Shown here: positions 1 through 10,397 of the stretch, piece by piece | How positions within the stretch are numbered: position 1 is the stretch's first letter | Layout: each line of letters starts with the position of its first letter | Origin: an uncultured Alphaproteobacteria bacterium | GTDB taxonomy: Bacteria > Pseudomonadota > Alphaproteobacteria > Rs-D84 | DNA: 28,434 bases | Direction: 5' to 3' | Assembly: GCA_946611025.1 (NCBI GenBank) | Contig: CAMOCR010000001.1 | Location: 1 to 28,434 of the forward strand | Program-made: the position numbers and the translations under genes | The notes under the pieces: generated by a model | What the model saw: the letters and a program-made list of their open reading frames with translations, nothing else | What the model was told of the DNA's origin: nothing | Databases searched by the model: none

Positions 1-749
1 GTCGTATTAGTCGGATTTGCTGTGCATTCAGAAACTTTTAAACTTTTCCCATCTTCGAAAATACTGTTATAATAATCTGTATCATTTTTCTTTAATACAT
101 CAATAAAATTTTTCGGATAACTACTTTCCAACAAATCAAGTCCACCTTCTTTCCACCCATACGCAACTTCTGTTTTGTTAGAATTTACTTTCTTTGTATC
201 CTTTAGATACTTGATATATTTCTCATGAAAATCATTGATACTTTTATCACTCATTATTCCTAAATTTCCATACCCTATCCGTTTTACTGGATATGATTTA
301 TCTACAAGCCCCTCTTTAACAACATTAACATAATGAATTTTATCTGTTGGAACTTCATATATAGCAAAATCAGACAACCAAGCGTCTTTTACACCAGATG
401 CTTTATATGTCACAGACATTATTTCCCGTGCTGGTGTTGTTATATTGATTTTTTTATGAAGTGCACCATCATTTCTTTTGACACAATGCTTTGCAGTATA
501 AACATATAATTTACCATCTGGTAATTTTGCCACAACCCCACTACACATATAAGTGTACACAGTGTCCTGTATTTTTTCTTTTGCCTCTACTTTGACCACT
601 GCATTATATGGTTTTTCTTTCTTTTGTTCATCTGTCACATAGCAACGCTTGTCTATCGTGTATTCTTTTGGTTTCGTACAATGGTCGTCACCGAATGCCA
701 ACATGGGCGATATAAATGCTAATAAAAATGTCACTACACTTCTTTTCAT
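1..749 (-). CDS. Secreted trypsin-like (S1/V8-type) serine protease, 3' end truncated by window edge; not in the supplied ORF track
   Basis: Manual translation from ATG at 749 stays open to position 1: MKRSVVTFLLAFISPMLAFG (signal peptide) ... YMCSGVV ... YVYTAKHCV (His at 486-488) ... SDFAIYEV (Asp at 369-371) ... RIGYG ... LKVSEC. The catalytic Ser motif would lie beyond the edge. Confidence 0.75.
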   Translation of the reverse strand, partial: MKRSVVTFLLAFISPMLAFGDDHCTKPKEYTIDKRCYVTDEQKKEKPYNAVVKVEAKEKIQDTVYTYMCSGVVAKLPDGKLYVYTAKHCVKRNDGALHKKINITTPAREIMSVTYKASGVKDAWLSDFAIYEVPTDKIHYVNVVKEGLVDKSYPVKRIGYGNLGIMSDKSINDFHEKYIKYLKDTKKVNSNKTEVAYGWKEGGLDLLESSYPKNFIDVLKKNDTDYYNSIFEDGKSLKVSECTANPTNT

Positions 750-1699
750 CTCAGCACATCCTCGCATCGTTGTGCAGACGCCATCAATTTCTTGGTCAGT
801 GTTATCAGCGATATATTTAACCCCGTTTCAACTGCCCCGGTCGCTATATTTGCCCCCGACATCACATTTGCAGTTGTATTTAATGCCTGTTCTTTCCGCT
901 TGTCTTTATTTGACATTTTTATTTTGTTTTCCATGTCCATATATTTGTTTGAATTTGCCGCCGCACTGGTTCCAACACCAACCGCACCAATTGCAACCCC
1001 CGCAACAGATGTTCCCATAACCCCTTTCATTCTGTTTTCTATTTTTTCAATATCGCTGATATTTATTGGTTTGCACCATGTGCGCGCGTTGCTTAATTTT
1101 TTCATAACATTGTGTTCCATTGGATTTGCACCAACCTTCTTTAATTCTATTTCGATATCTGGTATGGCTTCTATCATTTCATTACAAGCCGTCACGCGCT
1201 GAATTAAATCAGATTGGTTTGTATTTATTCCTGACATTATCGCAGATGCCAAATTTGTTCCAATCGTGCCTGCTAATAACCCGGTACGCCAATTCCCCAA
1301 TTGTTTTGATTTTTCAATATGTTCTTGTAATTCTGCAATTTGCGCCATCGGCTGTAATACATTTTCAAAAAATTCGGCATTGCTCATTGCTTCTACACCT
1401 TCGGCAGAACATCCACCCGCATTGCACATTTCTTCGATTAGCCTATCAATCTCTTCTTCCTCTTTTGACTTTGTGATACCAGCAACCAATGCACCACCCG
1501 CCGCAACCGTTCCCACAACAGATACCGCCGTGTTCGCCTTGGATATATTCGCGACACGACCAATCTCGTCAGCGACACCCGAACACACAACACGAATCGC
1601 CTCATATGCCACTGTGGCATTGGAAACAACATCGTCTACATCTGCAAACGATGCAACAGGGAACAGAAACAACAAAAACAAAATCGGTATTTTTACCAT
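746..1699 (-). CDS. Secreted Gly/Ala-zipper helical protein, paralog A (hypothetical, 317 aa)
   Basis: Signal peptide MVKIPILFLLFLFPVASFA; four Gly/Ala/Thr-rich hydrophobic segments; 6 Cys; aligns end to end with 18782-19726 (e.g. SKQLGNWRTGLLAG vs SKSLGNWRTGLMAG). AGGG RBS upstream of ATG 1699. Confidence 0.85.
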   Translation of the reverse strand: MVKIPILFLLFLFPVASFADVDDVVSNATVAYEAIRVVCSGVADEIGRVANISKANTAVSVVGTVAAGGALVAGITKSKEEEEIDRLIEEMCNAGGCSAEGVEAMSNAEFFENVLQPMAQIAELQEHIEKSKQLGNWRTGLLAGTIGTNLASAIMSGINTNQSDLIQRVTACNEMIEAIPDIEIELKKVGANPMEHNVMKKLSNARTWCKPINISDIEKIENRMKGVMGTSVAGVAIGAVGVGTSAAANSNKYMDMENKIKMSNKDKRKEQALNTTANVMSGANIATGAVETGLNISLITLTKKLMASAQRCEDVLR

Positions 1700-1708
1700 A
1701 TGTCTGCC

Positions 1709-3307
1709 CTATTTTTTCAAATACTGAATCGGGTTATACGCGCGCGTTCCACGGCGAATTTCAAAGTGCAATTGCGGCTTGTCAACCTTGCCTGTCTTGC
1801 CGACCGTGCCGATTTTTTGCCCGACACGCACATTTGTACCGCGTCGCACCCCCAGTGAATCCATATGGGCATAGACCGTCATCCAACCATCGCTGTGTTG
1901 AATAATAACCAGATTACCCATACCTTTGACCTCATTCCCGGCATATGCCACAACGCCGTTTTCCGCAGCCAGAACCGATGTGCCAACATTTGCGCCGATA
2001 TTTATACCATCGTTAAACAGACCGCCGTTTTTCGCACCATAGTTTGATAAAACGCGCCCCCGCACCGGCCACGAGAATTTAGATGCCGACCGCGCTGCAA
2101 TTGTTGGCGCCTTGGTGGATGACTTGATTTGTGTTGTCTTGGTTGCGGTTTGTTTTTTGGTTGTTTGTTCCTTTGGCTTTTTATCTTGATTGGTGGCCTT
2201 AGATTTTGTTGCTGATTTTTGTTCTGGTTTTGTGGCTGGTTTGTTTGCCTGTTTTGCCGTCACCTTGGCGGATTGATGATTTGCCATCTTGGTTTCTGCC
2301 TTGGGCGCGGCCTTGGCTGGTGCAGTTGTTGCCGCCTTCGCCGTACGCACCGGCGCCGATGACAAATCTGGCACACGCAATGTCTGCCCCGCATACAGCG
2401 CAAACGGTGGTGTCAAATTATTTATAACCGCCAAATCATTTACCGGTATTGAATATTTACGCGATAATGAATATAACGTGTCACCCGGCGCAACCGTCAC
2501 CGCACCAACATCAACACGCGTTGTTGTTTTGTGTGCTGGCTCTGCCTTTGGTTTTGGTTCCGCTTTGGCTTCTACTTTTGATTCTGGTTTCGGCTCTGGT
2601 TTTACTTCTGCCTTGGTTTCGGATTTTGTGGCTGGGGCTGTTTTAATTTCAGCAATCGCCTGTTCGGTTGGAACACGCACGCGCAGTTTTTGCCCCACCC
2701 GCAACAAATATGGCGCGGTTAAATTGTTTTCTTTTGCGATTTCTTCAACCGTCATATTGTATTTTTTACCCAACAAATACAGTGTATCGCCACGCACAAC
2801 GGCTATTTCCGTATACTCGTCCGCCCCACCATACATTGGAATATTCAATTTATCGTCTGTTTTGCTGTGTTCATCCCATGCAATATCATCTTCGTCAGCC
2901 GTTCCATCTGGGGTATTGTCTGGCACGACCAGTGTATCATCAACATCGTCACCCACAAATTCATCCATTTCGTCCGGGGCGTCATCATCTGTTGCATCTG
3001 GTGTGTTATCATCAGTGCTTTCTTCAACTGGTTGTGGCGGGACAATATAGTCATCAACCGATGAATACAAAACATAATCGTCACCAGTTGCATCGGTACC
3101 ATATACTTCTGGTGCGGCATACACGCCATAGTCTGTTGCCGCCGAATTATATATTTCGGGTTGGGCGTTTGGGTCCGCCAACAACGCCGGATAACGCGCC
3201 GAAATAAATTCACCAACCGTATCGGGTAATGATGTTATTTTGGGTTGCAAATCACATGCTGCAACGCCCAATATTGCAACCAATAAAAATGCACTGAATT
3301 TTTTCAC
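1709..3307 (-). CDS. nlpD: NlpD/DipM-like lipoprotein with two LysM domains and a degenerate M23 (LytM) domain
   Basis: Lipobox VAAC; LysM motifs VVRGDTLYLLGKKY and VAPGDTLYSLSRKY; M23 motifs FSWPVRG, NDGINIG, YAHMD, PQLHFEIR; lies directly downstream of tatC. Confidence 0.88.
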   Translation of the reverse strand: MKKFSAFLLVAILGVAACDLQPKITSLPDTVGEFISARYPALLADPNAQPEIYNSAATDYGVYAAPEVYGTDATGDDYVLYSSVDDYIVPPQPVEESTDDNTPDATDDDAPDEMDEFVGDDVDDTLVVPDNTPDGTADEDDIAWDEHSKTDDKLNIPMYGGADEYTEIAVVRGDTLYLLGKKYNMTVEEIAKENNLTAPYLLRVGQKLRVRVPTEQAIAEIKTAPATKSETKAEVKPEPKPESKVEAKAEPKPKAEPAHKTTTRVDVGAVTVAPGDTLYSLSRKYSIPVNDLAVINNLTPPFALYAGQTLRVPDLSSAPVRTAKAATTAPAKAAPKAETKMANHQSAKVTAKQANKPATKPEQKSATKSKATNQDKKPKEQTTKKQTATKTTQIKSSTKAPTIAARSASKFSWPVRGRVLSNYGAKNGGLFNDGINIGANVGTSVLAAENGVVAYAGNEVKGMGNLVIIQHSDGWMTVYAHMDSLGVRRGTNVRVGQKIGTVGKTGKVDKPQLHFEIRRGTRAYNPIQYLKK

Positions 3308-3359: not shown

Positions 3360-4064
3360 TTAATCCCGCATGAACAAAATACTGGATTCAAACAGCAGCC
3401 ACATCGGCACCGCCAACAGAATCTGGGACACGACATCTGGTGGTGTTAAAACCGCCGCAACAATCACGATAAAGACAATTGCATAGCGGCGCATTTTTAT
3501 AACACTTTGACGCGATAACACGCCCAACCGGTTCAGCATAACCATAACCAGCGGCAATTGAAACGCAACACCAAACACGCGCAACAGGCCAATTGAAAAC
3601 GACAAATAATCACGCGCCACCGGCAACATCAAAGATGGCACCGGCGATGATTCGTTTAATTCAATAAAGAACCGAAATACAAACGGCAACAAAACATAGA
3701 ACGCAAACCCCGCACCAATTAAAAACAAAACCGGTGATAAAATTAAAATTGGGAAAATAAACCCGCGTTCATTTTTTTTCAACCCCGGCGCAACAAACGC
3801 CCACACATGCCACAGCGCAACCGGTATTGTCACAATTATAGCAATTAAAAATGCCAATGACATTTGTATCATAAAACCATCGGTAATTCCCGAATACAAC
3901 AGCGCACCATCGGGCCATATATTTATCAGTGGCGCGGTTAAAAAATCTTGGACAACCGGTGCCACACACCACCCAAAAACCAACGCACAAACAAACACCG
4001 CCAATGCCCACAAAATGCGGCGGCGCAGTTCAGCAAAATGTTGCATCATTGTCATTTTTTTCAT
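3360..4064 (-). CDS. tatC: Twin-arginine translocase subunit TatC
   Basis: HFAELRRR, APGLKKNE, FQLP, AAVLTPPDVVSQILLAVPMWLLFE motifs; six hydrophobic segments; ATGA overlap with tatB. Confidence 0.96.
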   Translation of the reverse strand: MKKMTMMQHFAELRRRILWALAVFVCALVFGWCVAPVVQDFLTAPLINIWPDGALLYSGITDGFMIQMSLAFLIAIIVTIPVALWHVWAFVAPGLKKNERGFIFPILILSPVLFLIGAGFAFYVLLPFVFRFFIELNESSPVPSLMLPVARDYLSFSIGLLRVFGVAFQLPLVMVMLNRLGVLSRQSVIKMRRYAIVFIVIVAAVLTPPDVVSQILLAVPMWLLFESSILFMRD

Positions 4065-9713: not shown

Positions 9714-10079
9714 TCATAAATTCTGTAAAAAGCGAATCATTGAATTTACACCGTTCAATCGCCCCGCCCCCAGATTTAATTCTAACCCAGAAAACATTTG
9801 TGCCAGATCCATTTGTCTAATTTCATCTGGTGTGTGTCCATCAACCATAGATAACAATATTGCAACAATACCACGCACAATTGCCGAATCGGCACATGCA
9901 TAAAACCTATTGCCAAGCCGGCAAATTTCAACATGCGACGCACACCCCGTAATTTCACTGCACACGGCACCATCTGGGACCTGTGCCAAACGCGCCCCCA
10001 AATCCATAACCATTTCCAGTTTCATTGCCGGATCGGTAATGCCCGATAATAATTTTTTTATTTCATCATAATTCATCAT
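9714..10079 (-). CDS. sufE: Cysteine desulfurase acceptor SufE
   Basis: ITGCASHV (acceptor Cys), DSAIVRGIVAIL, LGAGRLNG; two genes downstream of sufS. Confidence 0.9.
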   Translation of the reverse strand: MMNYDEIKKLLSGITDPAMKLEMVMDLGARLAQVPDGAVCSEITGCASHVEICRLGNRFYACADSAIVRGIVAILLSMVDGHTPDEIRQMDLAQMFSGLELNLGAGRLNGVNSMIRFLQNL

Positions 10080-10082
10080 AAA

Positions 10083-10397
10083 TTACCATCCGCTTTCTGT
10101 TAAATCTAATTCCAGACGCGCCGCATCCGACATCATCGATAAATTCCATGGCGGGTCCCAAACCAATTCAACACGCACCGGCGCACCATGCGCAACCGCG
10201 GCAACCGCATCTTTGACCTGGGCAAAGATTTCTTCCATCAATGGACATGTGGGACTGGTAAATGTCATGGTTATAACAATTTCTTTGGTACCGATTTTTA
10301 TATCATAAACCAAACCCAAATCCCAAATATTTACCGGAATTTCCGGGTCATACACGGTTTTTAATGCATCAATAATATCTTCACGCGATGTCGCCAT
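10083..10397 (-). CDS. DUF59 / SufT-like Fe-S assembly protein
   Basis: LKTVYDPEIPVNIWDLGLVY, MTFTSPTCP, VELVWDPPW. Confidence 0.92.
   Translation of the reverse strand: MATSREDIIDALKTVYDPEIPVNIWDLGLVYDIKIGTKEIVITMTFTSPTCPLMEEIFAQVKDAVAAVAHGAPVRVELVWDPPWNLSMMSDAARLELDLTESGW

Follow-up and report, generated by a model that had tools for sequence, protein, structure and literature searches.

A lineage-specific gene pair of Candidatus Enterousia joins a conserved helical protein gene to a secreted S1 protease gene

The described systems closest to the gene pair reported here are secreted serine proteases of the S1B type (V8/GluV8, the Spl proteases, exfoliative toxins and glutamyl endopeptidase), the ClyA-family toxins with the two-component XaxAB/YaxAB/PaxAB, the holin-endolysin cassettes of phages together with type 10 secretion, and pairs such as the Eag/DUF4123 adaptors with type VI secretion system (T6SS) effectors (e.g., Tlde1) and the mycobacterial PE/PPE proteins. 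The pair, which we call locus A, lies at the beginning of a 28,434-nucleotide stretch of DNA (hereafter the window), the first bases of contig C1 (CAMOCR010000001.1) in a 710 kb, 94-contig, ~80% complete assembly (GCA_946611025.1) of an uncultured alphaproteobacterium of the order Rs-D84. All genes of locus A are on the minus strand. A gene encoding a 317-residue helical protein with a Sec signal peptide, here termed the helper, overlaps by four nucleotides (ATGA) a gene encoding a secreted, trypsin-fold serine protease of family S1 (Table 1). Judged from its sequence and from those of its relatives, locus A is one copy of a two-gene module specific to the Candidatus Enterousia lineage (order Rs-D84). 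This lineage and the wider order consist of uncultured gut bacteria with genomes of less than 1 Mb that are missing most biosynthetic pathways, and these genome-reduced organisms probably depend on other cells (PMC12306168). We tentatively favour the idea that helper and partner form a physical pair once they have left the cytoplasm, and that the helper takes the partner to a membrane surface of the producer or of a neighbouring cell.

Like the S1B enzymes, the partner protease has matching profiles, His/Asp/Ser motifs and fold. Unlike them, it has a helical insertion of ~60 residues between the barrels (model residues 174-235) and a conserved N-terminal disulfide-type C-x11-C box (…YTIDKRCYV…), and its gene adjoins a helper gene and is unusually AT-rich in the window copy. 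The ClyA-family toxins are similar to the helper in size and in being elongated and all-helical, and their binary forms are encoded by adjacent gene pairs. However, the searches gave no significant sequence or fold match between them and the helper, which lacks a beta-tongue and a hydrophobic head and carries a Sec signal along with its four invariant Cys. Moreover, the product of the second gene of the module is an unrelated enzyme instead of a further helical subunit.

Holin-endolysin cassettes and type 10 secretion also place a gene for a helical membrane-type protein directly upstream of, and often overlapping, a hydrolase gene, and draw on many interchangeable hydrolase classes (a glucosaminidase and an L,D-peptidase fold among them). 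The helper differs from holins in being three to five times larger, in its cleavable signal peptide and in being without true transmembrane segments; its partners carry their own Sec signals, and there is neither a PHROG match nor a phage context. The T6SS and PE/PPE pairs resemble the module in joining a conserved small helical family to diverse, fast-evolving effectors, and one partner class carries the domain of Tlde1 itself, an antibacterial T6SS effector that acts on peptidoglycan (PMC9638812). Here, however, both proteins are Sec-exported, and no N-terminal domain common to the partners was found. We rejected the identification as a T6SS effector-adaptor pair because the helper has a signal peptide whereas the adaptors are cytoplasmic, and because five same-genus genomes of 94-98% completeness yielded no sheath gene (VipB/TssC).

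Coupling, partners and distribution of the module

Read 5' to 3' on the minus strand, the helper gene of locus A ends in ...CTG AGA TGA and the protease gene begins with ATG AAA AGA in the +2 frame, the stop and the start overlapping as a preliminary description of this DNA had reported. The protease gene has a GAGGA Shine-Dalgarno sequence 9 nucleotides upstream of its ATG, within the helper gene's 3' end, and a motif of this kind (GAGG, GGAG, GGGG, AGGAG, AGGA or AAGG) lies ahead of the partner start in nearly all coupled loci. The ATGA junction and the partner's own Shine-Dalgarno sequence indicate coordinated expression, not the 1:1 ratio implied by the stoichiometric production envisaged in that description.

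Overlaps as such are ordinary in a compact genome, and the window contains others on one strand, at 4061-4064 (tatB/tatC) and at 9714-9717, 9391 and 10397 (cell-division cluster), as had also been pointed out. In a crude call of 623 genes of the source genome, with a downstream open reading frame (ORF) of at least 100 residues, the −4 overlap occurs in 5% of genes and an overlap or spacing of −4, −1 or +1 in 11%. We compared this background with a first sample of 60 loci from genomes of the same order that hold 69 family members, 54 from the family of helper A (the home family) and 15 from a sister family. The −4 junction is found in 41 of the 54 home-family members (76%); seven further junctions are at +1, three at −1, and one each at −8 and +18, and one member is uncoupled. 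An ORF with a signal peptide thus lies within −8 to +18 nucleotides of the helper stop in 53/54 members, and every coupled downstream ORF in this sample begins with a signal-peptide-like N-terminus. (For five of the −4 junctions, the start was moved from an in-frame ATG at −22 to the signal-peptide ATG at −4.)

The second sample comprises 81 members on 80 species-representative contigs and partly overlaps the first. Its junctions are at −4 (49), −1 (9) and +1 (3), with about ten more within −8 to +23, so that ~70 of the 81 are coupled; ten members have no coupled downstream ORF, and one of these (L105) is at a contig end. The view that a conserved subunit is combined with a variable secreted partner is therefore upheld: when the downstream genes and junctions of homologs were tabulated, the home family did not show the opposite pattern, in which the secreted gene is missing and the neighbours are housekeeping genes.

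In L074 and L075, which are two of these ten members and the closest helper orthologs in the second sample (72-73% identical to helper A), the S1 gene is instead directly upstream of the helper gene. In L074, for instance, the S1 gene occupies 578-1462 and the helper gene 1483-2439, with a gap of 20 nucleotides. The association of helper and protease is thus independent of gene order. L074 also has a second S1 gene, ~740 nucleotides downstream, past a gene on the opposite strand.

The source genome encodes three helper paralogs, each beside a different secreted partner. Helper B is 32% identical to helper A over its full length (E 3e-39), and the same ATGA junction joins it to a large Cys-rich secreted protein, again in agreement with the preliminary description. 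Paralog C is on contig C6; 1 nucleotide after its stop begins a gene for a 207-residue secreted protein with nine Cys, which is also AT-rich (GC content 33.8% versus 45.5% for its helper gene). Upstream of paralog C, at a distance of 15 nucleotides, ends an ORF (L003:2437-3864, minus strand) whose product has an autotransporter beta-domain (PF03797, E 1.6e-7).

The Cys-rich class of 1000-1330 residues, to which the partner of helper B belongs, is the commonest partner class in the first sample (21 loci). S1 proteases are the partners at 13 loci of that sample and make up 39 of the 76 partners detected in the second. Partner clustering also yields at least a dozen small Cys-bearing classes, one of which has a Tlde1/YkuD L,D-transpeptidase fold (conserved YLHG...SGGCISLG, including the conserved His) and another a glucosaminidase domain above the Pfam cut-off. 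By their predicted domains, the S1 protease, Tlde1/YkuD-like and glucosaminidase partners are envelope-degrading activities. A docking domain shared by the partners was considered and rejected: once signal peptides are removed, similarity to the N-terminus of the 1000-residue class is confined to a single small class and an orphan and does not extend to the proteases.

In a library of 1.8 billion proteins, the helper family divides into 280 clusters at 50% identity. Of 121 genomes searched from the order Rs-D84, 81 contain it, with one to eight matches each. Its named records come from Candidatus Enterousia and from alphaproteobacterial metagenome-assembled genomes of ruminant, horse and mouse guts, and three of the helper-carrying assemblies are listed as Enterousia (PMC12306168). 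A profile search identified 20 near-complete genomes of the same genus without a helper, and among these 17 are also without the S1 partner family and 18 without the large partner. The three helper-less genomes that do have an S1 homolog encode it as an ORF of 580-650 residues. One example (L068:2165-4084, minus strand) is a stand-alone S1 protease of 639 residues with its own C-terminal coiled coil and Gly-rich segments. The coiled coil is followed by ...SLGNRILGAAAIGAGGIGG..., which resembles the LGNWRTGLMAG segment of the helper (a weak match, hhalign probability 15%), and a Gly-rich stretch of the 1055-residue partner in the window, GLGAAAIGAGVAGLGVG, is akin to it.

The helper tree tracks partner class, with 17 label changes compared with 42 when the labels are shuffled. 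S1 partners occur in at least two helper clades, and partners are swapped inside the clade of helper A. In every pair of the two main partner classes the helper is conserved above its partner, with identities of 60% versus 27% for the large Cys-rich class and of 66% versus 36% between the window pair and its ortholog L008.

The S1 protease and the helper protein

The downstream gene had been described as encoding a trypsin-like protein with a signal peptide; the His and Asp motifs, the family profile and the model of an ortholog all agree, and on this profile and model evidence its product is a member of peptidase family S1. The contig end falls before the Ser motif, which is nearly invariant in orthologs (G-(N/D)-S-G-G). 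Contigs from other bovine and sheep gut runs extend 240-300 nucleotides beyond base 1, so the truncation represents the end of the assembly and not a shortened gene. The contigs that match locus A in public runs are low-depth fragments of strains from bovine and sheep guts.

The truncated window protease scores below the Pfam gathering thresholds for Trypsin and Trypsin_2 (15.7 and 16.8 bits versus 20.6 and 27.6); its relatives L068 and L011 pass PF00089, and most database homologs carry PF13365/PF00089. A profile built from 13 partner proteins matches the glutamyl endopeptidase 1p3c (E 1e-12), followed by exfoliative toxins and trypsins, and two relatives are named 'V8-like Glu-specific endopeptidase' in one source. 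The AlphaFold2 (AF2) model of the full-length ortholog L008 (predicted local distance difference test, pLDDT, 92.6; predicted template modelling score, pTM, 0.89) has two barrels separated by the helical insertion. It matches trypsin, exfoliative toxin and DegS with a Foldseek probability of 1.0, and the 50 listed of its 837 PDB matches at E<=0.001 are all S1 proteases.

Among the relatives that a protein-collection search returned for the window protease, none exceeds 44% identity, whereas the helper has relatives at 73%. The GC content of the protease gene is 32.8% (24.5% at third codon positions), versus 42.3% (38.1%) for the helper gene and 43.9% for the genome, and the break coincides with the junction. 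Partner genes are on average ~3 points below helper genes, and the 10-point drop in the window is the largest among the sampled S1 pairs. A drop of this size suggests that the partner was replaced recently, by recombination at the helper gene's conserved 3' end.

Every helper N-terminus read (A, B and all 15 sister-family ORFs) is a Sec signal peptide. Helper A contains six Cys and four Gly/Ala/Thr-rich helical segments with charged helices between them. The family alignment has 13 invariant residues (C39, C172, C209, C312, G74, S131, G135, R138, T139, S245, N249, N274 and N278), and the small-residue helical segments are its most conserved parts. The AF2 model of helper A (pLDDT 78.6) consists of four long helices (42-93, 107-158, 214-248 and 264-316) and a small helical head (163-208), contains no strands and is least confident across the small-residue segments, all four of them. 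In the ESM Atlas, the model for the family's own cluster agrees with it (template modelling score, TM, 0.81). An origin of the two hairpins by internal duplication is weakly supported (hhalign probability 39%, E 3e-4).

Over 19 residues, the Kyte-Doolittle hydropathy of the four segments is 1.1-1.5, and their Hessa free energies sum to +4 to +6 kcal/mol each. They are thus not classical transmembrane helices, since the hydropathy is too weak and the insertion energies are positive. Taken with its signal peptide and with invariant Cys on the flanks of each hairpin, this weak hydrophobicity makes a fully exported, disulfide-bonded protein the simplest reading of the helper. If the disulfides form as we assume, they probably staple the modelled four-helix bundle. 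Long members of the helper family in the protein library carry 200-400 extra residues within the first helical hairpin. On the sister-family side (L048-L061; P0183, P0204, P0229, P0233), this insertion is a Cys-containing coiled coil at the hairpin tip, between segments 1 and 2, and the sister lineage may have incorporated the variable part in its helpers.

Searches of Pfam, NCBIfam and PHROGs gave no real match to the helper family, and phmmer against PDB sequences returned nothing. Fold searches (Foldseek and wide VIA-align against the PDB; AFDB clusters; ESM Atlas) retrieved only generic helical bundles and the family's own cluster. Of 66 members scanned, none matches the Pfam glycine-zipper families (Gly-zipper_Omp, Gly-zipper_YMGG, Rick_17kDa_Anti). 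The sole recurrent Pfam match is P5CR_dimer (7/66 members, best E 3e-6; 19 bits for the window copy against a cut-off of 25), a kinship that we rejected and attribute to Gly/Ala-rich composition; TIGR04527 matches below threshold (20 bits, cut-off 125). Membership in the ClyA family was also rejected as unproven. The ClyA-family scores against the helper model (Foldseek best E 0.05, TM 0.2-0.3; VIA-align Z 10.9 for ClyA and 10.6 for XaxA) are within the noise of helical proteins, as an unrelated designed bundle reaches a Z of 13.8. Neither a hydrophobic beta-tongue nor a hydrophobic head is present in the strandless model with its low hydropathy.

Table 1. Features of locus A and of the second helper locus in the window
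Feature	Position	Strand	Description
Helper A gene	1699..746	−	317 residues; home-family protein with Sec signal, modelled as four-helix
Sec signal peptide of helper A	1699-1643	−	MVKIPILFLLFLFPVASFA
Invariant Cys of helper A	C39 (1585-1583), C172 (1186-1184), C209 (1075-1073), C312 (766-764)	−	invariant in the family
Gly/Ala/Thr-rich helical segments of helper A	1534-1472, 1294-1226, 1027-956, 883-800	−	
CNAGGC Cys pair of helper A	1426-1409	−	A clade; at hairpin tip
LGNWRTG motif of helper A	1300-1280	−	invariant
Shine-Dalgarno sequence of protease gene	759..763	−	GAGGA, in the helper gene's 3' end
ATGA junction	746..749	−	4-nucleotide overlap of helper stop (TGA 748-746) and protease start (ATG 749-747)
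S1 protease gene	3..749	−	secreted, trypsin fold; first 249 codons, cut by the contig end
Sec signal peptide of protease	749-690	−	MKRSVVTFLLAFISPMLAFG
N-terminal C-x11-C box of protease	680-642	−	CTKPKEYTIDKRC
Catalytic His motif TAKHC	497-483	−	residues 85-89; His invariant in family alignments
Catalytic Asp motif SDFAIY	374-357	−	residues 126-131; aligns with the invariant family Asp (D129 of L008)
Start of helical insertion	275-246	−	GYGNLGIMSD
LysM-LysM-M23 peptidase gene	1709..3307	−	upstream of helper A; stop 9 nucleotides before the helper start
Helper B gene	19729..18782	−	315 residues, GTG start; own promoter-like site, terminator hairpin upstream
Partner of helper B	15618..18785	−	1055 residues, signal peptide, 26 Cys; ATGA junction 18785-18782

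Genomic surroundings and possible export routes

A peptidase gene (LysM-LysM-M23) lies upstream of helper A. No promoter-like site belonging to helper A was found between the M23 stop and the helper start, so the M23, helper and protease genes are probably co-transcribed. Beyond the window, just the closest of the orthologous loci (L004 and L074) have an M23 gene beside the helper gene, and we therefore rejected it as a general feature of the module.

In L004, a syntenic ortholog, a four-gene cassette encodes a helper, a 315-residue protein, an S1 protease and a 300-residue protein. The cassette is flanked by a 300-nucleotide direct repeat of the 3' end of the M23 gene (L004:5583-5882 and 9796-10095, 95% identical), and a second M23 fragment of 143 residues lies past it. 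L004 also has an 83-nucleotide repeat of the protease N-terminus. In its sequence, this pattern of repeats looks like insertion or duplication by recombination.

On contig C11 of the source genome (L073:3837-6426), a secretin gene and a TcpQ-like gene are neighbours, the arrangement of type IVb pilus systems, and two TolC-like genes are present on contigs C28 and C76. The five near-complete genomes of the same genus that were searched for the sheath gene all encode a VirB4-type ATPase. Predicted from sequence, the products of these secretin/TcpQ-like, TolC-like and VirB4-type genes might let the Sec-exported pairs out across the outer membrane. A Slam/T11SS gene, present in L004, was not found in the incomplete source genome by a search that matched no control genome either.

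Possible roles of the helper

In the reading that we favour, Sec would take both helper and partner through the inner membrane, and they would come together beyond the cytoplasm, where the helper would bind its co-expressed partner. The small-residue helices would attach the helper to a membrane surface, which could be the producer's outer membrane or the envelope of a supporting cell, and the helper would thereby position or deliver the enzyme there. The partners, whether proteases, peptidoglycan-editing or -cleaving enzymes or large Cys-rich proteins, may then act on the neighbour's envelope, for attachment or feeding. We infer the physical pairing, the membrane association and the target from several features of the module. 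Coupling is near-universal, three paralogs are joined to different secreted partners, and the association survives inversion of the gene order. The helper tree follows partner class, the helper outconserves the partner, and there are envelope-degrading enzymes among the partners. In addition, the helpers have Sec signals and invariant Cys, genomes without the helper mostly lack its main partners too, and the lineage is reported to be genome-reduced and probably dependent on other cells (PMC12306168).

Several observations weigh against this proposal. Locus A is absent from the public runs that are labelled as RNA. As modelled, the helper has a generic helical-bundle fold without an informative match, and no docking motif common to the partner classes was found. 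The partners are not followed by a consistent immunity-like third gene, the peptidoglycan-active pairs included, and these enzymes may attack other cells or instead remodel the producer's own wall. About seven further A-type orthologs among the ten uncoupled members of the second sample are solitary, between genes for peptidases S66 and U32, and 0/15 members of the sister family are coupled; the helper can thus work alone or in trans.

A more specific version of the favoured proposal is that the helper is the common translocator or anchor of a Sec-dependent binary delivery route not described before, which would place interchangeable hydrolases on or in the envelope of a supporting cell and exchange them at the 3' end of the helper gene. 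We consider this unlikely. It is likewise rather doubtful that the helper acts on the hydrolase as a holdase or inhibitor, silencing it in the periplasm of the producer until export. Such a safety catch would be useful, as the partner proteases and peptidoglycan-active enzymes would transit the producer's own periplasm without a separate immunity gene after them, and a helper gene that is upstream and translationally coupled would suit it. However, a single fold would have to neutralise unrelated enzymes plus Cys-rich proteins of 1000 residues, solitary helpers and an entire partnerless sister family exist, and the conservation of the helper peaks in the small-residue helices and not in a variable binding surface.

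Somewhat more improbable is a helper that damages membranes independently, as a secreted alpha-helical pore-former or permeabiliser, with the enzyme acting alongside it from outside and no complex between them. Solitary helpers exist, wall hydrolases are among the partners, the small-residue segments have the lowest AF2 confidence and may be conformationally labile, and ClyA-family proteins (ClyA, XaxA, PaxB, AhlC, NheA) recur among the weak fold matches. These matches nevertheless score below the designed bundle (Z 10.6-10.9 versus 13.8, Foldseek E >=0.05), and the helper has neither a beta-tongue nor a strongly hydrophobic hairpin, with an insertion cost of several kcal/mol per segment. Disulfides among the four invariant Cys, if formed as assumed, would also restrict large rearrangements. 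The role of carrier or pore subunit that was assigned to the zipper protein in the preliminary description consequently finds no support in the generic fold matches, in the ClyA scores or in segments that fall short of transmembrane hydrophobicity.

That description also raised the possibility that the protease is the activator that matures the zipper protein. The two genes are adjacent and coupled in locus A, and S1 proteases are the commonest partners in the A clade, but this is very unlikely as a general function because most partner classes are non-proteases: proteases make up about a quarter to a half of the partners, the others being peptidoglycan enzymes and 1000-residue Cys-rich proteins (the latter at 21 loci), and paralogs B and C of the source genome, like most classes elsewhere, pair with non-proteases.

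It is equally hard to see the helper as an integral, four-pass protein of the inner membrane that releases its partner in the manner of a holin or of type 10 secretion. Four segments do look hydrophobic, and in some loci the helper gene is upstream of and overlaps a wall-hydrolase gene, with an M23 gene upstream in the window; nevertheless, a 317-residue protein with a cleavable Sec signal, positive insertion energies and no PHROG or Pfam holin match does not have the character of a holin, its partners bear their own Sec signals, and such a topology would expose the extra hairpin-tip Cys pair to the cytoplasm. We therefore rejected both the holin identity and, from the hydrophobicity and the signal peptide, the four-pass topology. 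Finally, ATGA overlaps elsewhere in the window, such as that of tatB/tatC, would permit the overlap to be mere gene packing without a functional link, an explanation made highly improbable by the excess of −4 junctions over the background (76% versus 5%), by coupled partners that are always signal-peptide proteins and by an association that outlasts both inversion of the gene order and replacement of the partner.

As a multi-copy module restricted to one lineage, the gene pair is a testable candidate for the machinery by which Enterousia interacts with other cells. Pfam, NCBIfam, PHROGs and the PDB contain no annotated relative of the helper, and elucidating its function would define a new protein family. 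Once solved, it may reveal a new way of deploying secreted enzymes.

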